A stretch of 36,968 nucleotides of DNA from Candidatus Marsarchaeota archaeon (GTDB lineage: Archaea > Micrarchaeota > Micrarchaeia > Micrarchaeales > Micrarchaeaceae), in assembly GCA_023474155.1 (NCBI GenBank), contig JAMCYJ010000023.1, positions 1 to 36,968 on the forward strand. The letters are read 5' to 3'. The notes under the pieces are model-generated. The model was not told where the DNA came from and made no database searches. It saw nothing but the letters and a program-made list of their open reading frames with translations. This document shows positions 3,474 through 36,032 of the stretch, piece by piece; the first letter of the stretch is position 1, and the number at the start of each line of letters is the position of its first letter. The position numbers were made by a program, and so were the translations under genes.

Positions 3474-4037
3474 ATGAAACTTACATGGATGATTGGAGGC
3501 GAACAGGGAAGCGGCGTTGACACCGCATCAGGTCTATTCGGAAAGGCAGTGTCAGGGGCAGGCTATTACCTTTTCGGGAACAGGGAATACTACTCGACAA
3601 TAAAGAACAGGCACAGCTATTTCGAACTGTCGATAAGCGACAAAAAAATAAGCAGCATTTCAGAGCGCTACGATATAATAACCACTTTCGACGCAGAGAC
3701 GATATTCCAGCATTTTCAGCAGGCAAAAGCCTATTTTATATATTCCGAAACAAGTATTGGAAAAGGCATAGACGCGGCGCTTAGCCTCGAACCTGAAACC
3801 AAAAAGGAGATTATTGGCTTCATGAGCAAGCACGCCATTGAACCGACAGTGCAAGGGGTCGTCGATTATCTCAAGGCCGCGGGCATAGCCACGATACCCG
3901 TCAACTACGAGCAGATATTGAGGGAAATATCCGCAGAGCTGTCGATAAACATAACTCTTGCGGAAAAGGCACTCAACACTATAGCGGCGTCCGTTTCCTT
4001 TGCCCTGCTGGTGCGGAAAAGGCACTCAACACTATAG
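3474..4037 (+). CDS. OFOR gamma-domain fragment (upstream part of the split alpha gene)
   Basis: MKLTWMIGGEQGSGVDTASGLFGKAVSGAGYYLFGNREYYSTIKNRHSYF matches the N-terminus of Sulfolobus-type OFOR a-subunits. It ends in the out-of-frame tail VRKRHSTL*, which is encoded by repeat copy 2. Confidence 0.75.
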   Translation: MKLTWMIGGEQGSGVDTASGLFGKAVSGAGYYLFGNREYYSTIKNRHSYFELSISDKKISSISERYDIITTFDAETIFQHFQQAKAYFIYSETSIGKGIDAALSLEPETKKEIIGFMSKHAIEPTVQGVVDYLKAAGIATIPVNYEQILREISAELSINITLAEKALNTIAASVSFALLVRKRHSTL

Positions 4038-4064
4038 CGGCGTCCGTTTCCTTTGCCCTGCTGG
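3959..4064. repeat. Perfect 53-bp tandem duplication (2 copies) inside the OFOR alpha gene
   Basis: tgcggaaaaggcactcaacactatagcggcgtccgtttcctttgccctgctgg occurs at 3959-4011 and again, identically, at 4012-4064. Flanking bases do not extend the repeat. Confidence 0.97.
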
Positions 4065-4132
4065 GCCTTGATAAGCAGTACCTTGCAGATGCGATTTCGA
4101 ACACGTTCTCGAAAAAGCCCGACGCAATACCG

Positions 4133-5419
4133 ATGAATATGCTCGCCGCCGAGAAGGCATCCCTTCTCGTAAAGCCGGTGTTCAATCTCAAGCCGATCAA
4201 AAAGCAGGAAATGGTGCAGATTGACGGAAACACGGCCGCCGCGATCGGAAAAATAGCAGGAGGGATAGGATTCCAGAGCTATTATCCGATAACTCCTGCG
4301 AGCGATGAAAGCGTTTACCTTGAGGCTAACCAAATAGTCGATACAGTTGTTGACGGCGCCAAGTCCTCAAGGCCTGTGGTCGTGGTGCAGACAGAGGACG
4401 AGATTTCAGCGATAGGCATGGCGATAGGCGCGGGCCTTGCCGGCGTCAGGTCTGCAACCGCGACATCCGGGCCGGGATTCGCGCTCATGGCGGAGGCGCT
4501 CAGCTGGGCAGGCCAGACCGAAAGCCCTGTTGTTGTCACATATTATGTAAGGGGCTCGCCGTCCACTGGCCTCCCGACAAGGAGCGGCCAGTCGGACCTG
4601 AAATTCGCCGCGAACGTCGGCCACGGTGAGTTTCCGAAGATCGTGCTTGCTAGCGGCGACCACGCAGAGGTCTTCCACGACGCGATACTGGCATTCAACC
4701 TTGCGGAGGCATACCAGACGCCTGTCATACACTTAATCGAGAAGTCGATAGCAAACACTTACTCCACGCTCGACAAGGCGGAACTCGATTATTCCAAGGC
4801 AAAGATCGAGAGAGGCGCGCTAGTGCGTATGGATCCTGGCAAGGACTATAACAGGTATTCCCTTGAAAACGGGCCTGTCTCGCCCAGGTCCCCCCTTGGA
4901 TCATCAGTCGCATGGTACTCGGGCGACGAACACAGCGAGTCCGGGCACATCTCTGAAAATCCGACAAACAGGACAGCGATGTACGAGAAAAGGATGAAAA
5001 AGCTCGACCTGGCCGCCAAGGAAATCCCGCAAGATGAAAAACTGAATGTTTTCGGGGACAGCGGCGCTGAAAACGCCGTCATAACTTTCGGTTCGCCAAA
5101 GGGCGCGCTCAAAGACATTTTGGAGGACCTTTTATCAGAGGATAAAATAAAGCTGCAGGTTGTCCAAGTCAGGTTCTTTAGCCCGTTTCCTGCGGAGGAG
5201 CTGGCAAAGATACTCCAAAACAAGAAAAGGGTGATAGACGTCGAGAACAACTACACCGCGCAGCTCGGTTCGTTTGTCAGCGAGCACCTGCATATAACCC
5301 CTACTCATTTCATACTCAAGTGGAATGGCAGGCAGATGAATACGGACGAGCTTAGGGACGCGATAAAGCGCGCGGTCGGCAACGACGAGAAAAGGATAGT
5401 CCTTAACAGCGGGATGTGA
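4133..5419 (+). CDS. OFOR alpha-domain fragment (downstream part of the split alpha gene)
   Basis: 428 aa with a pyruvate/2-oxoacid:ferredoxin oxidoreductase alpha core (YPITPASDE, TSGPGFALM, FSPFP). The frame is already open from 4013 (AEKALNTIAASVSFALLGLDKQYL...). The first ATG is at 4133. Confidence 0.75.
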   Translation: MNMLAAEKASLLVKPVFNLKPIKKQEMVQIDGNTAAAIGKIAGGIGFQSYYPITPASDESVYLEANQIVDTVVDGAKSSRPVVVVQTEDEISAIGMAIGAGLAGVRSATATSGPGFALMAEALSWAGQTESPVVVTYYVRGSPSTGLPTRSGQSDLKFAANVGHGEFPKIVLASGDHAEVFHDAILAFNLAEAYQTPVIHLIEKSIANTYSTLDKAELDYSKAKIERGALVRMDPGKDYNRYSLENGPVSPRSPLGSSVAWYSGDEHSESGHISENPTNRTAMYEKRMKKLDLAAKEIPQDEKLNVFGDSGAENAVITFGSPKGALKDILEDLLSEDKIKLQVVQVRFFSPFPAEELAKILQNKKRVIDVENNYTAQLGSFVSEHLHITPTHFILKWNGRQMNTDELRDAIKRAVGNDEKRIVLNSGM

Positions 5420-5592
5420 ATATGCGGCAGAGAGCCATGCAAATGATTGAAAATTAATGCAAACCAGTGAAACCAATGGAAACGCAAATGCAGAAAAGCA
5501 GCAACGACGGACTTGTCAGGCCAAGGCATTGGAAGAGCGGTTTCAGTTTTACTTTAATAAAAATGCAGAAAATCAGCAGCAACGAAATCCGC

Positions 5593-6267
5593 ATGCCGGG
5601 GAGCGGCCATTCCGGCGATTCAAAAAACATAAAGGGCATAATATTCGACATCGGCGGCGTAATAATACACTATCCCGCGGAAGCATACTACAAGCAGCTG
5701 TCAAATAAATTCAATATCCCACTTAGCACCATAGCCGCCGCTACTGATCCTGTAAGACACGAGCTCGAGCTAGGGCGCATAAACCTGCATGAAATGCTCA
5801 GAAAGGTCTCTGCGAGCCTTAACATAAAAATCGTAGATTCGGAATTCATAAAAAGCTTCAAGGATTTTGCAAGGACAGATCATGAAATGGTACGCCTGAT
5901 AAAGAATCTGTCAGGCAACTACAACGTATACCTGCTTACAAACATCAGCAAGGCAGGATTTGCAATGTGCGACAAAGAGCTAAGGCAGAACGGATGCAGA
6001 TTCGACGGCAAGTTCGCATCGTGCTACCTTCATATGCGCAAGCCGGATCCGCGCATATACCATCACGTCCTTCGTGAAACAGGGTTAAAGCCCCAGGAGA
6101 CTATTTTCATAGACGACAAGAAAAAAAACATCGAGGCCGCATCCGCGATAGGGATGAATGGGATAGTGTTCAGCAATATGAGCCAGCTGATAGAAGACTT
6201 TAAGAAGCTCGGTATAACAATAACTGCGGATGCATGCAATGAAAAGAAAAAGAAAAAAGAAAAGTAA
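5593..6267 (+). CDS. HAD-superfamily phosphatase (YihX-like, DxG variant of motif I)
   Basis: Motif I is IIFDIGGVII. Also has LLTNISK, KPDPRIY and FIDDKKKNIEAA. The start is uncertain: in-frame ATGs at 5467, 5563 and 5593, with 5593 giving the usual short N-terminus. The C-terminus is a Lys tail (NEKKKKKEK). Confidence 0.8.
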   Translation: MPGSGHSGDSKNIKGIIFDIGGVIIHYPAEAYYKQLSNKFNIPLSTIAAATDPVRHELELGRINLHEMLRKVSASLNIKIVDSEFIKSFKDFARTDHEMVRLIKNLSGNYNVYLLTNISKAGFAMCDKELRQNGCRFDGKFASCYLHMRKPDPRIYHHVLRETGLKPQETIFIDDKKKNIEAASAIGMNGIVFSNMSQLIEDFKKLGITITADACNEKKKKKEK

Positions 6268-6312
6268 AAATAAAATAAGTAAAAGAAAAAGAAAAAATAA
6301 CCTCCTGATAAG

Positions 6313-6533
6313 ATGAATGCGAAAAACCAAAAAGAGAAACAAAAAGAAGAGCGCAAAATCTTTGAAAAAACAAAAAAAGAAAGCCAAAAACCAATGGCAA
6401 TAGTTATTGGAGATTTTCAGTTTAGCAGCTGCTGCACAGAGGAGATAAAGTCTGCACTGAGAAAACTGCAGGAATCCCCAGCGTCCAATCAGAAAGAGCA
6501 GAAGAAAACAGAAAACAGGCAGGCAAAATATTT

Positions 6534-6549
<16 letters not shown>
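6313..6549 (+). CDS. Hypothetical Lys/Glu-rich small protein (doubtful)
   Basis: A 78-aa ORF embedded in A-rich low-complexity DNA. Only the central part (MAIVIGDFQFSSCCTEEIKSALRKLQES) has ordinary composition. No recognisable motif. Confidence 0.25.
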
Positions 6550-7500
<951 letters not shown>

Positions 7501-11567: not shown

Positions 11568-11642
11568 GCTCTGATCGTCTAGTTCGGTCAAGGACACGGC
11601 CCTCTCACGGCCGTAACTCGGGTTCAAATCCCGATCAGAGCA
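11568..11642 (+). tRNA. tRNA-Glu (anticodon CTC)
   Basis: Hand-folded cloverleaf. Acceptor GCTCTGA/TCAGAGC. D stem GTCT/GGAC. Anticodon stem CGGCC/GGCCG with loop CTCTCAC. T arm TCGGG-TTCAAAT-CCCGA. Discriminator A. Confidence 0.9.
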
Positions 11643-16807: not shown

Positions 16808-17857
16808 ATGGTTGAAATTACGAGCCAGGATGACGAGGAGCTGCTCAAGTTCATTGAAAATTCAAAGCCCAAAATATATGTTATAGGAACAGGAGGCAGC
16901 GGAAGCAATACGATAAGCAGGCTTTTCAACATAGGCGTGCAGGGATGCGATTTGGTATCCATGAACACCGATGCCGCGCATCTTGTAAAGACGAAAGCGG
17001 ACAGAAAACTTCTTCTAGGCAAAAAACTAACAAGGGGCCTCGGCGCAGGAAGCGACCTCAAGATCGGCGCGGAGGCGGCAAAGGAATCCAAGGACGAGAT
17101 AAAGCACCTTATAAACGACGCGCAGCTTGTTTTCGTGACATGCGGGCTCGGCGGAGGGACAGGCACAGGCTCGGTTTCCGTCATAGCGCACGAGGCAAAG
17201 GAGCTCGGAGCGCTGACAATAGGGATTGTGACCCTTCCTTTTTCAAGCGAAGGCGCGACGAGGATGAAAAACGCGCTCGAAGGGCTCAACAGGCTGAAAA
17301 GGGAGGTGGATACGCTTATCGTGATAAGAAACGACAAGCTTCTTTCAATCGCATCAGACCTTCCGTTAAACATGGCATTCAGGGTATCCGACGAGGTTCT
17401 CGCAAGCGCGACAAAGGGCATTGTTGAAATGGTTACGAAGCCAGGAATGGTAAACATAGATTTTGCAGATCTTACTGCGACGCTTAGGGACGCGGGCTAT
17501 GGAGTTATAGGAAACGGCGAGGGCCTTGCGACTTCAAGAGACGCGGATCATGCCCGCATCGCGCTTGAGAACGCGATAAAAAGCCCGCTGCTTGACGTCG
17601 ACCTGTCAAACGCGAAGAAAGCATTGGTCAATATTGTCGGGGGGGAAAACCTGACGCTGAGGCAGGCCGAAGCAGTATTCAAGGACATTTCAGCAAGGAT
17701 AGACCCTACTGCATTGCTCAAGTGGGGCGCGAGAATCGAGCCCGACATGCAGAAAGACCTTATTCGCGTGATGATTGTCGTGAGCGGCGTGGATTTTCCA
17801 GACTACGGCCAGCAGATAGAGCCGAATGAGGAAATAGACCTCGACGAATTAATGTAA
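16808..17857 (+). CDS. ftsZ: Cell division GTPase FtsZ
   Basis: GTGGSGSNTISRL, NTDAAHL, and the tubulin signature GLGGGTGTGSVSVIA. 349 aa. Confidence 0.95.
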   Translation: MVEITSQDDEELLKFIENSKPKIYVIGTGGSGSNTISRLFNIGVQGCDLVSMNTDAAHLVKTKADRKLLLGKKLTRGLGAGSDLKIGAEAAKESKDEIKHLINDAQLVFVTCGLGGGTGTGSVSVIAHEAKELGALTIGIVTLPFSSEGATRMKNALEGLNRLKREVDTLIVIRNDKLLSIASDLPLNMAFRVSDEVLASATKGIVEMVTKPGMVNIDFADLTATLRDAGYGVIGNGEGLATSRDADHARIALENAIKSPLLDVDLSNAKKALVNIVGGENLTLRQAEAVFKDISARIDPTALLKWGARIEPDMQKDLIRVMIVVSGVDFPDYGQQIEPNEEIDLDELM

Positions 17858-17906
17858 GCGGCCGCGGAAATTTGAGTTCTGTTCAACATGCAATTTTGAT
17901 TAGCAT

Positions 17907-20330
17907 ATGACTGATTCGTCTGTTAATAGCAGCAAGACAAGATTCGACGGCGTAGACGTAACGCGCGCCTTCAAAGAGCTCCGCACTTCGGCGCGCGGGC
18001 TGGCAGGCGCCGAGGCAGACGAAAGGATAAGGATACACGGCGGCAACGAGATACCTGAAAAAAAGAAAAATCCCGCGATAAAATTTCTGAAGAACTTCAG
18101 CGGGCCGATCCCGCTTATGCTCGAAGCGGTTATTTTAATCTCTTATTTTCTCGGCAACTTCAAGGACATGTATATTATTCTCGCCCTTCTTATTTTCAAT
18201 TCAATAGTCACGTTTATCGAGGAGCGCAAGGCAGACAATTCCCTGGAGCTGCTTAGGGACCGCCTCGCTGTCAATGCGAAAGTGCTTAGGGATGATAAAT
18301 GGTCGGTCAGGCCAGCGAGGGAATTGGTAGAGGGGGACGTAGTATCTGTAAAGACAGGGGACATAGTGCCCGCAGACCTCAAAGTCATTTCATCGCAGGA
18401 CCTGATGGCCGACGAGTCTGTGCTTACCGGTGAGACGAAAATGAAGCCGAAGCCGAAAAACAGCACCATGTATTCAGGTTCAGCAGTAAAGCAGGGCACG
18501 GGTTTATGCCTTGTCATCGGTACAGGATACAACACTTATTTTGGGCGCACGACAAAGCTCATAGAAGTTGCAAAACCCGAAATGCATCTTGAAAAAGACA
18601 TATTCAATATTGTAAAGTATATCGTTGCAATAGATTTTTTGCTTGTCGTATTTATGGCGCTATGGGCCGTTTTTGTTTTCAAATATCCTATAACAGAAAT
18701 GCTGCCTTTCAGCCTTGTGCTGCTGATCGCCTCGGTGCCTGTCGCCCTTCCCGCGGCGATAACAGTCTCGACGGCAGTTGGCACTGAACGGCTCTCAAAA
18801 AAATCAATCCTGATTACGCGCCTGCAGGCGATCGAAGAGGCGTCGGGCATAAATGTCGTGTGCTTCGACAAGACAGGCACGATAACGAAAAACGTTCTGG
18901 AGGTGAAAGAGGTATTTCCGCTCGGAAGGCACTCTGAAAAAGACGTGGTTGTAGGCGCGCTGCTCGCATCAGACAGGGACGGCAATGATCCTATAGACTC
19001 AGCAATAATATCCTATTCCGGCAAAACGCATTGCGCCGCAGGGAAATCCAAACAGATTTCATTTACTCCGTTCACTCCTGCAACAAAATACGCGAGCGCG
19101 AAAATATCGACAGGGAAGGAGACATTCACTGTAACAAAGGGGTCTATCGAAGTCCTGGCAGGTCTCAGCAGGCTTTGCAAAAAAGACATGGCCAAGCTGA
19201 TGCGGCAGGTAAAGGAATATTCAGGCAAGGAGTTTAGGACAATAGGGGTCATGAAGAAGCGCGGCAAAAATCCCGCGGAATTTCTTGGCATAATTGCGAT
19301 GTACGACGAACCGAGAAAGGACGCGGCAAGTCTTATAAAAGAACTCAGGGGCCTCGGCATATCGATAAAAATGCTGACAGGAGACGATATAGTCATAGCA
19401 AGGCAGATTGCTGGCGAGGTAGGAATAGGGGGCAATATAATTTCAGCTGGCGAATTAAAAGGCAAAAGCGTAGCCGACGTCAATGACCTTGTGGAAAATA
19501 GCGACGGGTTCGCAGGCATATATCCTGAGGACAAATTTTTGATCGTGAAGGCTTTGCAGAGCAAGGGGTACAGGGTTGCAATGACAGGCGACGGCATAAA
19601 CGACGCGCCCGCGCTGAAGCAGGCAGACATAGGCATCTGCGTCGAAAACGGGGCGGACATTGCAAAGAGCGTCGCAAGCATCGTTCTTATGAAAAACGGA
19701 ATAAACGTGATTGTCGACGCGATAAAAGAAAGCAGAAAAATATTCGAAAGAATCAGGGTTTATGCAATGTTCAAATTGATAAGGATATTCCAGCTGCTGC
19801 TCTTTATTTTTATAATATTTGTTTCGATAAAGGTCGTCCCGATAACCGCGTTGATGCTTATCTTGCTGATTTTCACGACAGACATAGCGAACATATCAAT
19901 TTCGACAGACAATGTCGCGTATTCGAAGAGCCCCGACATCTGGAACATCAAGGACCTTGTAAAATATTCGTTCAGCCTTAGCGCGGTGTTTTTCATGTTT
20001 TTGCTTGTAATGTCCTTTTTTTCAATGCCGTTTGTTACAGGAACCAAGCAATTCCAGACCTTTGTATTTCTTATGTTTGACATTACAAGCATCATGCTTC
20101 TCTACAGCATAAGATCCCAGACAAGTCTTTTTGGAAGAAGGCCGAGCAAGTATCTTGTCATTGCATCGCTAAGCGGGGCGGCATTCGGCGTAATAGCGTC
20201 TTTGTTCGGTATATTTATCCCAAAGATAGGAATATATCCCGTGCTATTGGTTTTAGGATTCAGCGCATTGTTTGTGCTGCTATTTGATGTGATCAAAATT
20301 AAGATCTACAAGCACTTGAAGATGCAGTAG
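17907..20330 (+). CDS. P-type ATPase, plasma-membrane H+-ATPase-like (P3A-type)
   Basis: Phosphorylation site CFDKTGTITKN, TGES-type TGETK, hinge MTGDGINDAPALKQADIG. The N-terminus (GLAGAEADERIRIHGGNEIPEKKKNPAIKFL) is typical of H+-ATPases. 807 aa. Confidence 0.88.
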   Translation: MTDSSVNSSKTRFDGVDVTRAFKELRTSARGLAGAEADERIRIHGGNEIPEKKKNPAIKFLKNFSGPIPLMLEAVILISYFLGNFKDMYIILALLIFNSIVTFIEERKADNSLELLRDRLAVNAKVLRDDKWSVRPARELVEGDVVSVKTGDIVPADLKVISSQDLMADESVLTGETKMKPKPKNSTMYSGSAVKQGTGLCLVIGTGYNTYFGRTTKLIEVAKPEMHLEKDIFNIVKYIVAIDFLLVVFMALWAVFVFKYPITEMLPFSLVLLIASVPVALPAAITVSTAVGTERLSKKSILITRLQAIEEASGINVVCFDKTGTITKNVLEVKEVFPLGRHSEKDVVVGALLASDRDGNDPIDSAIISYSGKTHCAAGKSKQISFTPFTPATKYASAKISTGKETFTVTKGSIEVLAGLSRLCKKDMAKLMRQVKEYSGKEFRTIGVMKKRGKNPAEFLGIIAMYDEPRKDAASLIKELRGLGISIKMLTGDDIVIARQIAGEVGIGGNIISAGELKGKSVADVNDLVENSDGFAGIYPEDKFLIVKALQSKGYRVAMTGDGINDAPALKQADIGICVENGADIAKSVASIVLMKNGINVIVDAIKESRKIFERIRVYAMFKLIRIFQLLLFIFIIFVSIKVVPITALMLILLIFTTDIANISISTDNVAYSKSPDIWNIKDLVKYSFSLSAVFFMFLLVMSFFSMPFVTGTKQFQTFVFLMFDITSIMLLYSIRSQTSLFGRRPSKYLVIASLSGAAFGVIASLFGIFIPKIGIYPVLLVLGFSALFVLLFDVIKIKIYKHLKMQ

Positions 20331-21237: not shown

Positions 21238-21310
21238 GGGGTTGTATGCTAGCTTGGTAGACTGCCGGCTTCGGGAGCCGGTTACCGGAGTTCAAATCTC
21301 CGCAACCCCA
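21238..21310 (+). tRNA. tRNA-Pro (anticodon CGG) with a non-canonical D arm
   Basis: Acceptor GGGGTTG/CAACCCC pairs 7/7. Anticodon stem CCGGC/GCCGG with loop TTCGGGA. T arm CGGAG-TTCAAAT-CTCCG. In the standard register the D stem gives only G11-C24 and U13.G22; an alternative CTA/TAG 3-bp stem is possible. Confidence 0.75.
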
Positions 21311-24232: not shown

Positions 24233-24766
24233 TTAATATTTGAGCAGCGTAAAGAAATCGTATCCTTTAAGTTTTTCTCTTCCTTTCAGCGCGCTCAATT
24301 CTATAAGTGCGCATATGCCCGCAATTTTTGCATCTAATTTTTCAAGGAGTTCTATGCTTGCTGCAAGTGTTCCGCCTGTTGCAAGCACATCGTCAATTAT
24401 CAAAACCTTGCTGTCCTTTTCGACAGCATCGCTGTGCATCTCAATTGTCTGCTTTTCAGCGTATTCAAGGCTGTAAGAAACTTCAACAGTTTTGTATGGC
24501 AGTTTTCCTTTTTTCCTTATCGGTATAAACCCTTTTTTCAGCTTGTATGCAAGCGCCGAGCCTATAATGAAGCCACGCGCATCAATCCCTGCTATATAGT
24601 CTATATCCTTTCCGTAAAGACTGACATTTATGTAGTCTATGCAAAGCGCAAACAAGTCCTTGTCCTTTAGCAACGGCGTTATGTCCCTGAACATGACCCC
24701 TTTTTTAGGGTAATTCTCTATGTCCCGTATCTTTGACCTCAGTAGTTTTTCTATATCCTCGTTCAT
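24233..24766 (-). CDS. apt: Adenine phosphoribosyltransferase
   Basis: KIRDIENYPKKGVMFRDITPLL and the PRPP-binding motif VLIIDDVLATGGTLAA. ATG 24766 is preferred over the ORF-track TTG at 24802. Confidence 0.92.
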   Translation of the reverse strand: MNEDIEKLLRSKIRDIENYPKKGVMFRDITPLLKDKDLFALCIDYINVSLYGKDIDYIAGIDARGFIIGSALAYKLKKGFIPIRKKGKLPYKTVEVSYSLEYAEKQTIEMHSDAVEKDSKVLIIDDVLATGGTLAASIELLEKLDAKIAGICALIELSALKGREKLKGYDFFTLLKY

Positions 24767-24816
24767 TTCAATGCCTTTAATTGTTAATTTCAAATCGAGC
24801 AAACTTCTCCATAGGA

Positions 24817-24969
24817 ACTTTTTTCTTGATTGAACTTCTTCCTAAGAAGCCCAAAGACTTTTTTCTTGATTGAACTTCTTCCTAAGAAGCCCAAAGACTT
24901 TTTTCTTGATTGAACTTCTTCCTAAGAAGCCCAAAGACTTTTTTCTTGATTGAACTTCTTCCTAAGAAG
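24817..24969. repeat. Perfect 40-bp tandem repeat, about 3.8 copies, each unit containing a hairpin
   Basis: The unit cttgattgaacttcttcctaagaagcccaaagactttttt occurs at 24825-24864, 24865-24904 and 24905-24944 with no mismatch. A partial copy follows at 24945-24969, and 8 nt of unit tail precede at 24817-24824. Confidence 0.97.
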
Positions 24970-24970
24970 T

Positions 24971-27220
24971 TCAGTCGCAGAGGCTGAACCCGCACTTCGG
25001 GCACGTGAAGCAGCCTTCGCCCGCGATCATTCCTGTTCCGCATTCAGGGCACTGCTTCTCGTTCGCAGCTGAAATCACGTATGTGGCCGCGTCGAAGTTG
25101 GTGATGCCCGTCTTGCCTCCATGCCTTTCTTTCAGGCTTTTCAAGGTTGTCTGGTTCTGCTCGTTTACCATGTTAAGCACCTGATTTGATTTGCTTTGGT
25201 CCCTGTATACTGTTATGCCTTTGCACCCGAGTTCATATGCGAGTTTGTACGCGTTTTCAATGTCCTGGGGGGTTGCGCGGCTCGGGAAATTTATCGTTTT
25301 TGAAACCGCATTGTCAACATGCCTCTGGAATGCGGCCTGCATTTTTACATGCCACTCCGGCGCGATGTCGTGCGCGGTCACGAAAAGCTTTCTTATTTTT
25401 TCAGGAATCTCATTGACATCCTGTATCGATATTTTCCCTGCAAGTTTCTTCATGAGGTCGTCCGAGTAAAAATTATTCTCAAGCGCGTATCTCTCGAATT
25501 CGTTATTGACTTCTATAAGATTCGAGCCGAGCGACTCCGCGACGTTCCTTAAGTAGACTACGGAGAATATAGGCTCTATGCCCTGCGATACCCCGTTCGA
25601 GATTATGCTTATCGTCCCTGTCGGCGCTATTGTTGTGACTGTGGAGTTCCTGAGAGGCTTATATCCTAGCTTGTGCCATATGCTGTTTTTGAATTCGGGG
25701 AACGCCCCGCGCTCCTCCGCAAGCTCGTGGCTCATCTGGCGCGCGTTGTTAGTTATGAATGACATCACATTCTCGGCAAGCGCAAGCGCCTCGTTGCTGT
25801 CGTATCTTATGCCAAGCTTTATCAGCATGTCTGCCCAGCCCATGACGCCTATGCCTATCCTCCTTATAGAGCGAGTCATCTCCTCTATTTCTTTGATGGG
25901 ATACGTGTTTGCGTCAATTACGTCGTCGAGGAACCTTATTCCCAGACGCGTAATGCGTCTCAGCTCGTCCCAGTCCACCTCGAAATGGCTGTTCATGGGC
26001 TTTAGCATATTCGCAAGGTTTATCGAGCCTAGGTTGCAGGAGTCGTACGCATACAGCGGCTGCTCGCCGCACGGATTGGTAGATTCAATAGGCCCGAGCC
26101 TAGGCACAGGGTTTGAATAGCTCGAGTTTATCCTGTCTATAAACACCAGGCCGGGGTCGCCGGTCTTCCATGCCATCGTCACGACGAGGTTCCAGACCGC
26201 CCTTGCATTGAGTTTGCCGACCGCCTTGCCGTTTCTCGGATTTATTAAGTCGTACTGCCTGTTTGCGCTGAGCGCGTTCATGAATTCCTTTGTCACGGCG
26301 ATAGAGAGATTGAAGTTCCTGAGCGTGTTTTCATTCTCCTTTGCCACAATGAAGTTGAGTATATCCGGGTGGTCTATGCGGAGTATTCCCATGTTGGCGC
26401 CCCTGCGCTTTCCGCCTTGTTTGATCTGCTCTGTCGCGGAATCAAATATCTTCATGAATGAGATCGGGCCAGAAGCAACGCCGCCGGTCGTATTCACGGT
26501 GTCGTTTGACGGTCTGAGCCTTGAAAATGAGAATCCTGTGCCTCCCCCGCTTTTATGCACTACCGCGGCGTACTTGACCGCATCAAATATCCCGTTTATC
26601 GAGTCTGCAATAGGGATTACAAAGCACGCGCTCAGCTGGCCAAGTTTCGTACCCGCGTTCATCAATGTCGGCGAATTTGGCATGAACTTGAAACTTGTCA
26701 TTGCGCTGTAGAATTCCCTTGAGATCTCCATTATCTGTTTATCCTCTTTGCCGTACTTCTTTTCGACTCCTGCAATCGAGTTTGAAACCCTCTCGAACAG
26801 CTGCTTCGGTGTTTCTATGATCTTGCCGTTTTCATTTTTAAGCAGGTATCTTGCAGAAAGTATTATAAGCGAGTTGATAGGCAGCTTCAGATCGTCAGAA
26901 ATTCCAAGTGAAGCCTTGAAGATCCTGACTTGCGCGTGTTTGTGCCTGTAGAGTATATATGCCTTTGCTACATTGGCGTCCTCCTCCATGAGCTCCTTTT
27001 CCACAAGGTCTTGGATCTCTTCAACATGAATCTCCTCTACTTTTAGCTTATTTATTGTTCCGGCGACTTTTTTTGCGATCGTCCCCGCAGCCATTTCATT
27101 TTTTTCTTCAGGGCTTTTTATATAAACATTAGAAAATGCGCGCATCACTGCATTCTTGATTTTGTTCTCATCAAAAGGCACCCGTTGCCCGTCTCTCTTA
27201 ATAACATTCCTGATACCCAT
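24971..27220 (-). CDS. nrdJ: Class II (adenosylcobalamin-dependent) ribonucleoside-triphosphate/diphosphate reductase with ATP-cone and C-terminal zinc ribbon
   Basis: ATP-cone VIKRDGQRVPFDENKI, active-site TNPCGEQPL, and C-terminal CPECG...CFTCPKCG. Candidate starts are ATG 27220, GTG 27229 and TTG 27232. Confidence 0.93.
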   Translation of the reverse strand: MGIRNVIKRDGQRVPFDENKIKNAVMRAFSNVYIKSPEEKNEMAAGTIAKKVAGTINKLKVEEIHVEEIQDLVEKELMEEDANVAKAYILYRHKHAQVRIFKASLGISDDLKLPINSLIILSARYLLKNENGKIIETPKQLFERVSNSIAGVEKKYGKEDKQIMEISREFYSAMTSFKFMPNSPTLMNAGTKLGQLSACFVIPIADSINGIFDAVKYAAVVHKSGGGTGFSFSRLRPSNDTVNTTGGVASGPISFMKIFDSATEQIKQGGKRRGANMGILRIDHPDILNFIVAKENENTLRNFNLSIAVTKEFMNALSANRQYDLINPRNGKAVGKLNARAVWNLVVTMAWKTGDPGLVFIDRINSSYSNPVPRLGPIESTNPCGEQPLYAYDSCNLGSINLANMLKPMNSHFEVDWDELRRITRLGIRFLDDVIDANTYPIKEIEEMTRSIRRIGIGVMGWADMLIKLGIRYDSNEALALAENVMSFITNNARQMSHELAEERGAFPEFKNSIWHKLGYKPLRNSTVTTIAPTGTISIISNGVSQGIEPIFSVVYLRNVAESLGSNLIEVNNEFERYALENNFYSDDLMKKLAGKISIQDVNEIPEKIRKLFVTAHDIAPEWHVKMQAAFQRHVDNAVSKTINFPSRATPQDIENAYKLAYELGCKGITVYRDQSKSNQVLNMVNEQNQTTLKSLKERHGGKTGITNFDAATYVISAANEKQCPECGTGMIAGEGCFTCPKCGFSLCD

Positions 27221-34013: not shown

Positions 34014-34100
34014 GCAGAGGTGGCAGAGCCTGGTCAAATGCGATGGGTTCAGGGCCCATTTCCTTTAGTGGATGCGTGAGTTCGAATCTCATCCTCTGCA
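34014..34100 (+). tRNA. tRNA-Leu (anticodon CAG), class II with long variable arm
   Basis: Acceptor GCAGAGG/CCTCTGC. D stem GCAG/ATGC with G13.A22. Anticodon stem ATGGG/CCCAT with loop TTCAGGG. Long variable arm. T arm GTGAG-TTCGAAT-CTCAT. Followed by ttttt. Confidence 0.9.
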
Positions 34101-34200
34101 TTTTTCTTTATTTTTATCCTTTTTCTGTCTTATTTTGCAAAGCAGACGCCTTCATGCATTGCCTATCCGAATTAACCCTGCAAATTTATCTAATTAGAAT

Positions 34201-34272
34201 CGCCCTGACCGGGATTCGAACCCGGGTCGCAACCGTGACAGGGTCGTATGCTAACCACTACACTATCAGGAC
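34201..34272 (-). tRNA. tRNA-Asp (anticodon GTC)
   Basis: The reverse complement folds as follows. Acceptor GTCCTGA/TCAGGGC (one G.U). Anticodon stem CGACC/GGTTG with loop CTGTCAC. T arm CCGGG-TTCGAAT-CCCGG. Confidence 0.88.
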
Positions 34273-34370
34273 AGCCGAAAATGAATTCTATTATTTAGAC
34301 ATTAAATATTTATCCCTCAATATTATTAAATATTAATATTTAATGCAGCCTTTATCTTTAACTATGTATA

Positions 34371-35916: not shown

Positions 35917-36032
35917 TGTCAAACGGTAATAGAGATAAGGAAACGCCCGATCCCATTCCGAACTCGGAAGCTAAGCTTATTTTCGATACGTGTGTACTGC
36001 TTTAGAGCGGGAAATCGTGTTGCTGTTTGGCA
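35917..36032 (+). rRNA. rrf: 5S ribosomal RNA (stand-alone)
   Basis: The core cccgatcccattccgaactcggaagctaag matches the universal 5S loop B / helix III region. The terminal helix tgtcaaacgg/ctgtttggca has 10 bp with 2 G.U. About 116 nt. Confidence 0.88.

Follow-up and report, generated by a model that had tools for sequence, protein, structure and literature searches.

A perfect tandem array of hairpins at the nrdJ stop codon of a Micrarchaeota archaeon: probable in-place amplification of a dispersed hairpin module

Introduction

Why should the short spacer between two genes of nucleotide metabolism carry the same 40-nt hairpin unit almost four times over, without a single mismatch? The question is raised by the locus between nrdJ and apt, both on the minus strand, in a stretch of 36,968 bases from contig JAMCYJ010000023.1 of a Candidatus Marsarchaeota archaeon (hereafter the window, meaning the whole of this stretch). 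A preliminary description of the locus had proposed, among other things, an intercistronic regulator peculiar to this site. The answer that we consider probable is a different one, namely that the array is a selfish hairpin module, situated at the nrdJ stop codon and drawn from a dispersed family, that has been amplified in place. In such a module an A/T-rich stem of 9-10 bp would close a purine-rich loop of 3 nt and be followed by the A-rich tail A(A)TCAA(G/A)A; members of its family would be dispersed over the genome of this Micrarchaeota species and over those of many further DPANN-type archaea.

Structure and copy number of the array

Tandem Repeats Finder places a tandem array at 24817-24969, with a period of 40, 3.8 copies, 100% matches, 0 indels and a score of 306, so that the perfect array of about 3.8 units given in the preliminary description is confirmed. 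Taken up to the end of nrdJ, the array occupies 24817-24973 on the minus strand; its sense unit is GCTTCTTAGGAAGAAGTTCAATCAAGAAAAAAGTCTTTGG (40 nt x 3.8, 0 mismatches), and the first unit opens with the nrdJ stop codon itself. The 40-mer CTTGATTGAACTTCTTCCTAAGAAGCCCAAAGACTTTTTT is complete at 24825-24864, 24865-24904 and 24905-24944, and has no further occurrence in the window with up to three mismatches allowed; a match to it was found in 0 of 100 dinucleotide-preserving shuffles of the window. The units are contiguous, with no spacers between them, and read-through of the nrdJ stop would meet a TAG after three codons, in keeping with the non-coding, spacerless array described earlier. A CRISPR array (short palindromic repeats, clustered and regularly interspaced) is ruled out, the units having no unique spacers.

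The unit that touches nrdJ contains, as had been noted, a perfect 10+3+10 palindrome at 24951-24973, TGAACTTCTT-CCT-AAGAAGTTCA, the final three bases of which are the nrdJ stop. Read on the minus strand this is hairpin H1, UGAACUUCUU-AGG-AAGAAGUUCA, in which the stop UGA (24971-24973) makes up the outer three pairs. As DNA the internal units are palindromic only to the extent of 6+3+6. In gene-sense RNA, and there only, they have stems of 11 bp that include two G.U pairs, UUGGGCUUCUU-AGG-AAGAAGUUCAA; these are H2 at 24910-24934 and H3 at 24870-24894, and in the last unit H4 at 24830-24854, all on the minus strand and with the same sequence. H4 is followed by AATCAAGAAAAAAG and then by unique sequence. 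The array does not fill the whole of the 204-nt nrdJ-apt spacer, as had been supposed. The part adjoining apt, 24767-24816 on the minus strand, is unique, and within it 24774-24792 (TGAAATTAACAATTAAAGG) is identical in relatives whose NrdJ is 92% identical; this part is probably the promoter or 5' region of apt.

Is an array of identical units in a metagenomic assembly real? The region is present in seven public runs, four of which are mine-tailings metagenomes with essentially the window's strain. Unitigs built with k=31 in those four runs end 30 bases into the repeat from each side, and in all four a cyclic unitig of 67-70 nt crosses the unit junction at 1.6-3.3 times the depth of the flanks, against an expected 3.0 for the window's copy number. 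The k-mers common to all four units are deeper still than the junction unitig. The presence of two or more tandem units is certain, and the true copy number is likely to be about 3-4, with depth ratios that may leave room for heterogeneity of copy number within the population. It is hard to credit, against these junction and shared k-mers, that a single true unit was expanded by the assembler, even though short-read assemblies handle tandem repeats poorly and the window itself provides a suspicious case. This is a perfect 53-bp duplication (x 2) at 3959-4064, which contigs of runs X1 and X2 cross with one copy and at the edges of which X4 contigs break. It splits a 2-oxoacid:ferredoxin oxidoreductase-like gene into open reading frames (ORFs) 3474-4037 (POR domain) and 4133-5419 (POR_N, PFOR_II); deletion of one 53-bp copy gives a single ORF of 630 aa, and the duplication is an artefact of the assembly or else a rare frameshifting allele. 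The doubt first cast on the array by its short-read origin thus lapses as to an expansion from one unit, and holds as to the exact number. The window's exact NrdJ is encoded by one 3-kb Logan contig, which ends at the repeat; no record of the window's exact Apt protein was found.

Comparison with related archaea

The nearest NrdJ proteins, at most 92% identical, belong to metagenome-assembled genomes (MAGs) labelled Micrarchaeota, Micrarchaeia or 'Marsarchaeota'. The order nrdJ-apt is kept in relatives with 92%, 80% and 75% identical NrdJ, with spacers of 80, 95 and 22 nt respectively. The array is absent from every relative examined, that is, from these three levels of identity and from relatives' contigs in three further runs, which have 30-31 unrelated-looking bases in place of 24793-24948. 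When 3 x 40 nt are taken out of the window's spacer, the remainder aligns end to end with the spacer of the 92% relatives (67 of 92 aligned columns match), including the identical TGAAATTAACAATTAAAGG just upstream of apt; the relatives carry the equivalent of one unit. Since the collapsed spacer matches the relatives and the array is absent from them, the array is, judged by these alignments, a recent in-place amplification of pre-existing local sequence that is confined to one lineage. The recent expansion that had been read from the identity of the units is thereby upheld. No target-site duplication flanks the array in the window.

The 80% relative, too, has a module-like hairpin immediately beside its nrdJ stop, with a score of 18.3 bits in the covariance model R2 described below. 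A hairpin right after nrdJ is thus a feature that recurs across species, its stem sequences differing between them. In its full extent the nrdJ-apt spacer of that relative (L010:5263-5357) holds a hairpin AACTCTTT-AAAA-AAGAGCTT directly after the stop and also a perfect 10-bp hairpin, TTTGCAAACT-TTTC-AGTTTGCAAA.

Distribution of the hairpin module

Among GTDB species representatives the 24-mer core of the unit has one match, in Candidatus Micrarchaeota MAG FK4.bin48 (JAJYYU010000001.1, here L002). There the sequence AACTTCTTAGGAAGAAGTTCAATCAAGAAA (L002:2000-2029), which agrees with the window at all of its 30 nt and lies downstream of a gene for a beta-CASP nuclease, runs directly into a second, sister hairpin, GAAACTTTTAAGAAAAGTTTCATCAAAAG (together L002:2000-2060). 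The sister module has the form GAAACTTTT-N3-AAAAGTTTC-ATCAAAA, 28 nt in all. Because the L002 locus occurs at about 98% identity in the same four runs as the window, at a depth that tracks the window's, we assign it to the window's population. Over the hairpins the depth, taken from k-mers or summed contigs, is 5-25 times single copy, a figure to which other members of the community may contribute, and the loose ends continue into a wide variety of flanks. The 37 kb and 8 kb of the species that were examined show three module loci, namely the window, L002:2000-2060 and L002:2919. The unitig graphs of runs X1-X4 contain in addition a second tandem array, made of the perfect palindrome, with a 32-nt period (sense TGAACTTCTTAGGAAGAAGTTCAATCAAGAAG), which in one run continues into a hairpin of the GAAACTTT type. 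The earlier suggestion that scattered copies would point to an element resembling a repetitive extragenic palindrome (REP) or a miniature transposable element with inverted repeats (MITE) is therefore borne out for the hairpin-plus-linker core, through the 30 nt in L002, the depth and the sister module, and fails for the full 40-mer.

These copies also bear on the simplest alternative, a neutral minisatellite made by slippage from ordinary local sequence, the likeness of which to other hairpins would be a coincidence. Homology between the collapsed spacer and that of the relatives would be expected on this account, as would the uniqueness of the 40-mer itself and the weak covariance-model support for family membership. 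Yet an exact identity of 30 nt with L002:2000-2029, at a place where it abuts a canonical module, is unexpected by chance in a genome of about 1 Mb; the k-mers of the palindrome lie far above single-copy depth, and the palindrome recurs as a 32-nt-period array in the same samples. We consider coincidence quite unlikely.

The third locus of the species is of a different kind. The gene for tRNA-Ala(UGC) at L002:2880-2984 has, in the intron mode of ARAGORN, a 31-nt intron at position 37/38, aaGAAACTTTTAGAAAAAGTTTCATCAAAAc, which is almost wholly sister module. The Rfam tRNA model matches L002:2881-2983 with 55 bits, and the precursor retains a cloverleaf fold, in which an extended anticodon arm bears the module at its tip. 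As read by eye, CAAA in the tail of the intron could pair with UUUG of the tRNA-Ala anticodon loop, leaving 3-nt bulges, and this pairing would form the central helix of a bulge-helix-bulge (BHB) motif.

How far does the sister module extend beyond this species? The pattern GAAACTTTTNNNAAAAGTTTCATCAA, with 23 specified bases, was found in at least 120 metagenome contigs and in 6 IMG/VR contigs, where fewer than one chance match is to be expected, by a rough estimate, in AT-rich DNA of such a database size. Among the matches listed, the flanks of the module are unrelated and its loop is variable, and the two bases that follow the pattern, which were not part of the search, read AA in each of the 125 distinct copies. 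When 646 kb of retrieved loci were scanned with a relaxed structural rule, 204 modules were obtained, compared with 7-12 in block-shuffled controls. Pairing is retained in stem variants such as CAAACTTTT/AAAAGTTTG, GAACCTTTT/AAAAGGTTC and GGACTTCTT/AAGAAGTCC. Twelve copies lie in intron-bearing tRNAs predicted by ARAGORN, 11 of them in tRNA sense, and many further tRNA copies, as judged by eye, at non-canonical intron positions. Others are placed exactly between the genes for S12 and S7, for L13 and S9, and for a PIN protein and RpoE; 15 of the 46 copies that have an upstream gene on the same strand begin, like the window's, no more than 4 nt from its stop codon. Relative to co-directional protein genes, 18 copies are in sense and 9 in antisense orientation, a difference that is not significant (p = 0.12), and for this reason we claim no general RNA-level constraint outside tRNAs.

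The module is found within protein-coding sequence as well. An in-frame copy in the P-type ATPase gene of an organism of Nanoarchaeota/Woesearchaeota type (L058:1345-1384; homologues P0121-P0133) encodes a 12-aa insertion, LRKVSSKNDEGK, in the loop between the N-domain and the P-domain, which is absent from 8 ATPase homologues, seven of them 72-73% identical. The empty site in orthologues reads GAA AAA TTA | AAT GAA AAA, and the left arm of the hairpin overlaps a pre-existing GA(R)AAA(Y)T. Pfam domain matches continue in frame on both sides of the module in the P-type ATPase, in an Lhr helicase (DEAD domain) and in a Fic protein (Fic domain). The ATPase homologues that bear a name come from Nanoarchaeota, Woesearchaeota and Aenigmarchaeota MAGs, and L31e and RpoE neighbours confirm archaeal hosts of the module; its depth in groundwater runs is about 100 times that of the host gene. 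Module-based tandem arrays are present in 9 of 126 loci, for example 39 nt x 3.6 at 99%, 39 x 2.9, 50 x 2.6 and 33 x 3.0. Going by these loci, tandem growth is a trait of the family, and the window's 40 nt x 3.8 fits the pattern. No description of the motif, or of a comparable DPANN hairpin repeat, was found in the searchable literature, which omits some journals.

Three other identities for the module were tried and rejected. An archaeal promoter, with TFB recognition element (BRE) and TATA box, does not suit a central loop that varies freely (GGG, GCG, ACG), stems that covary, or copies inside tRNA introns and ORFs. A likeness to box C/D or hammerhead RNA on the antisense strand (UGAUGA...GAAAC) lacks a D box or a stem II and has the wrong orientation in tRNAs. 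Modules that abut both a stop and a start are not mRNA introns splitting one gene, the flanking ORFs being distinct complete genes (S12/S7, L13/S9, PIN/RpoE).

Does the window's own hairpin belong to this family? Common to both are a stem of 9-10 bp with the ends GAA...TTC, a purine-rich loop of 3 nt with TT/AA beside it, and a tail of the form A(A)TCAA. All four array units conform to a structural rule of a 9-bp stem, TT/AA beside a loop of 3-4 nt and a 3' tail with CAA(A/G) within 3 nt. The window-type hairpin abuts a canonical module in L002, and intermediates are present in other organisms. Covariance model R1, built from 125 exact seeds, is too sequence-specific for a test of membership; R2 was built from 27 members of diverse variants, none of them from the window's species. 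The best R2 match in the whole window is 24939-24977 on the minus strand, which contains H1 (21.7 bits, E ~0.12 by a rough calibration), and in the alignment the nrdJ-proximal unit follows the consensus, with a single additional base pair that is compensated, before continuing as AUCAA. As the covariance scores are low, the family link is drawn mainly from the architecture, the identical linker and the adjacency in L002. From these likenesses, the window hairpin is likely to be a member of the family. Covariation statistics on alignment A4 are circular, the seeds having been picked for pairing, and are not used as evidence.

Folding of the array as RNA

An internal unit (24865-24904, identical to that of H2) folds in gene-sense RNA at -10.3 kcal/mol, with a z of -3.3 against shuffles and an 11-bp stem that includes the two G.U pairs; the same unit in plus-strand RNA reaches -4.9 kcal/mol, z -0.5. 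The claim that two G.U pairs favour the hairpin in sense RNA is in this way substantiated. Over the whole array region both strands fold better than shuffles, through pairing of unit with unit, as any tandem palindrome would. The fold shows no evident bulge-helix-bulge, with its two bulges of 3 nt at a distance of 4 bp, either within or between the array units. Rfam matches above the gathering threshold in the window are confined to 5S rRNA and four tRNAs, with none for the array, for which the best scores are chance-level matches to miRNA models (15-19 bits against thresholds of 68-97). A search for RNA runs yielded none for the window's nrdJ, nor for an S12-S7 locus bearing the module.

Could these hairpins be a regulatory RNA array specific to this locus, which sets the expression ratio of nrdJ to apt and was selected in the sense transcript to stabilise it between the cistrons, to have it processed there, to attenuate it or to bind a protein? 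Several features would suit such a role: the hairpins are strong in sense RNA only, the units do not differ at any base, relatives keep the syntenic position between two genes of nucleotide metabolism with the same orientation, and two lineages have a hairpin right at the nrdJ stop. A regulator of this kind should not, for all that, be missing from every relative in which the gene order is conserved. Nor is the sequence peculiar to the site, since its core is common to unrelated loci and a tRNA intron, and equivalent arrays stand in unrelated contexts of other organisms; the 18:9 orientation of the family and the lack of an Rfam match point the same way. We therefore think it unlikely that the array is a regulator purpose-built for this locus, as the preliminary description had preferred, given the core at a second locus, the 5-25-fold depth and the widespread sister module.

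The strand asymmetry has a second aspect. In the sense strand the stem is followed by A6, whereas on the plus strand T6 comes 9 nt beyond a weak stem. Oligo-T is an archaeal termination signal, and with CTTTTTTCTT repeated four times on the plus strand, and a family tail ATCAAAA that is TTTTGAT on the opposite strand, the units might be thought of as terminators or insulators against antisense transcription, each with its T6. For neither strand of the array does a simple terminator scan report an intrinsic terminator (a G+C-rich stem with an immediate T-run); the site has no gene on the plus strand running towards it; and the module is also found within ORFs and the introns of tRNAs, places in which termination would do harm whichever way the module faced. 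The plus-strand hairpin-plus-T6 terminator proposed earlier accordingly finds no backing here, and we regard an insulating function as very unlikely.

At the level of DNA, palindromic 23-mers at a regular spacing of 40 bp, or about four helical turns, bring to mind a protein-binding array, whether iteron-like, similar to origin recognition boxes (ORB-like), or composed of operators at which a dimeric protein would regulate nrdJ or apt. Against this stand the internal units, which are only 6+3+6 as DNA, the lack of an orc1/cdc6 gene or an AT-rich unwinding element beside the array, and its absence in relatives. Variation in the stems, moreover, is compensatory, which implies pairing rather than base-specific reading of DNA. 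The chance that the array serves as such a platform appears to us remote.

Genomic context

The upstream gene, nrdJ (24971-27220, minus strand), encodes a class II ribonucleotide reductase (RNR) of 749 aa, with an ATP-cone, the RNR lgN (all-alpha) and RNR barrel domains, and a C-terminal CxxC...CxxC; the product ends ...CPKCGFSLCD*. The downstream gene, apt (24233-24766, minus strand; likely ATG at 24766-24764), encodes a phosphoribosyltransferase (PRTase) of 177 aa and lies 3' of nrdJ in all relatives examined. Intein or homing-endonuclease domains (PF14528, PF14890) occur in several Micrarchaeota-type NrdJ of 1065-1150 aa, and the window NrdJ is without them; the homologues in question are P0062, P0080, P0081, P0090, P0101, P0103, P0109 and P0110. 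The nrdJ region (25001-27000) has about 50% G+C against 36-40% in its neighbourhood, and similar G+C-rich islands lie at 4001-5000 and 17001-18000; these may simply be conserved coding sequence in an AT-rich genome.

Elsewhere in the window, A-rich low-complexity tracts with AAAAGA and TAAAAAA periodicities are found at 6242-6297 and 6533-6589, near the end of ORF 5467-6267 and before ORF 6601-7500. Its RNA genes are a stand-alone 5S rRNA gene (35919-36031) and four intron-less tRNA genes, Glu-CUC, Pro-CGG, Leu-CAG and Asp-GUC (11568-11642, 21238-21310, 34014-34100 and 34200-34273), none of which carries a hairpin module.

Discussion

How might the array have come about? On the reading that we prefer, amplification in place of a selfish module, the ancestor would already have possessed one module-like hairpin just 3' of nrdJ. 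Slippage during replication, or unequal recombination, would then have added three further copies of a 40-nt segment comprising hairpin, tail and 5 nt, a process that the similar segments AGGAAGAAGTT and TGGAGAAGTT may have triggered. Zero divergence between the units would imply either a very recent event or ongoing homogenisation. The family itself we infer to be mobile, selfish DNA. Mobility is preferred to convergence because nucleotide-identical 28-nt cores occur in unrelated flanks and because the module is present or absent among orthologous genes.

In transcripts of nrdJ, or of nrdJ and apt together, four stem-loops would be expected, each at about -10 to -12 kcal/mol, and the stop codon would be part of the first. 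By analogy with bacterial clusters of REPs and bacterial interspersed mosaic elements (BIMEs), these could slow 3'-to-5' decay or loosen the coupling of the cistrons. Nothing suggests that the array has been selected for an RNA role.

Several findings weigh against this account. The full 40-mer was found nowhere else, whether in the window (searched with the 40-mer), in JGI metagenomes (24-nt core) or in IMG/VR (hairpin-plus-tail pattern), and the window hairpin (GAACTTCTT...) is a diverged variant of the module. The internal units H2-H4 score only 14.4 bits with R2 (E ~3), and a search of the window with R1 found no array unit. No transposase or other mobility signature was identified, no search having been aimed at a gene resembling REP-associated tyrosine transposases (RAYTs), and no target-site duplication is evident at the ATPase insertion in the one pair of filled and empty sites that was compared. 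The exact copy number of the array is uncertain, because the window assembly holds a 53-bp duplication that reads do not support. Finally, the identity of the units and the rescue of the stem by G.U pairs in sense RNA alone would also fit selection on RNA.

There is a further possibility, in which the module is a hitherto undescribed mobile hairpin of DPANN archaea that doubles as a minimal BHB-type tRNA intron. Wherever transcribed, it would be recognised by a conserved factor acting on RNA, whether the splicing endonuclease with its broad specificity or some other hairpin-binding protein. Transcripts would then have the module excised from them or bound on them at every such copy, be it between operon genes, within an ORF or in the nrdJ-apt array, and the window's four units would be a cassette for RNA processing or protection and not inert DNA. 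We put this forward tentatively and consider it unlikely.

Taken by itself, the array is a recent and probably neutral expansion of minor interest, such as an element of this kind would ordinarily produce. The wider interest lies in the tiny hairpin module, conserved at the nucleotide level in unrelated contexts of many DPANN-type contigs. Should its family be confirmed as mobile, the archaea would have in it a counterpart of REP/BIME and of the Rickettsia palindromic elements (RPEs), in another group of genome-reduced symbionts, and it would bear on how archaeal tRNA introns at non-canonical positions spread. The module also has a practical side, in that short-read assemblies break at it (here each copy ends a unitig) and ORF calls in DPANN MAGs are inflated or split by it.

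Relationship to known repeats

REP and BIME sequences are palindromes of 20-40 nt, dispersed through the genome, typically 3' of stop codons or between operon genes and often clustered, and their stem-loops in mRNA can stabilise upstream cistrons. The module resembles them as a short and, to judge by its depth, probably dispersed palindrome that stands at stops and between operon genes and forms clusters. It differs in having no GTAG or CGTC head, beginning instead with (T)GAAC or GAAAC, and the single-stranded portion that is conserved lies in the 3' tail, A(A)TCAA(G/A)A. Its stem is A/T-rich, not G/C-rich, the window's units are in direct tandem rather than in alternating orientation, the host is archaeal, and copies are found inside tRNA genes and ORFs as well. 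No RAYT-like transposase is linked to the module, though none was searched for. RPEs provide a parallel as selfish palindromic repeats of a reduced, symbiont-type genome that enter RNA genes and spacers and are inserted in frame into proteins and read through. They are much longer (100-150 bp, compared with 28-40 nt) and belong to another phylum and domain, with no sequence relation to the module; the window copies, moreover, are intergenic, and it is the sister module only that forms an in-frame insertion.

With archaeal BHB introns of tRNA genes the link lies in the sister module, which is nearly the whole of the 31-nt intron of tRNA-Ala(UGC) and occupies canonical and non-canonical positions in other tRNAs. 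Near-identical introns in different tRNAs imply spread, as in the transposed families of the Thermoproteales. The window units, in contrast, lie outside tRNA, as most copies of the family lie outside RNA genes, and splicing is predicted only. Minisatellites (variable-number tandem repeats, VNTRs) and the hairpin repeats of organelles share with the array head-to-tail units of tens of bp, perfect identity, presence or absence between close relatives and a likely origin by slippage, and the hairpin unit is in this case too scattered in the genome; unlike that of ordinary VNTRs, the core of the module is conserved across many organisms. From MITEs it is set apart by the lack of a target-site duplication at either the ATPase insertion or the window array. 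In kind, the module has its place between REP/BIME, RPEs and the transposed tRNA-intron families of the Thermoproteales; it lacks the GTAG head that defines the first of these and the size that defines the second.

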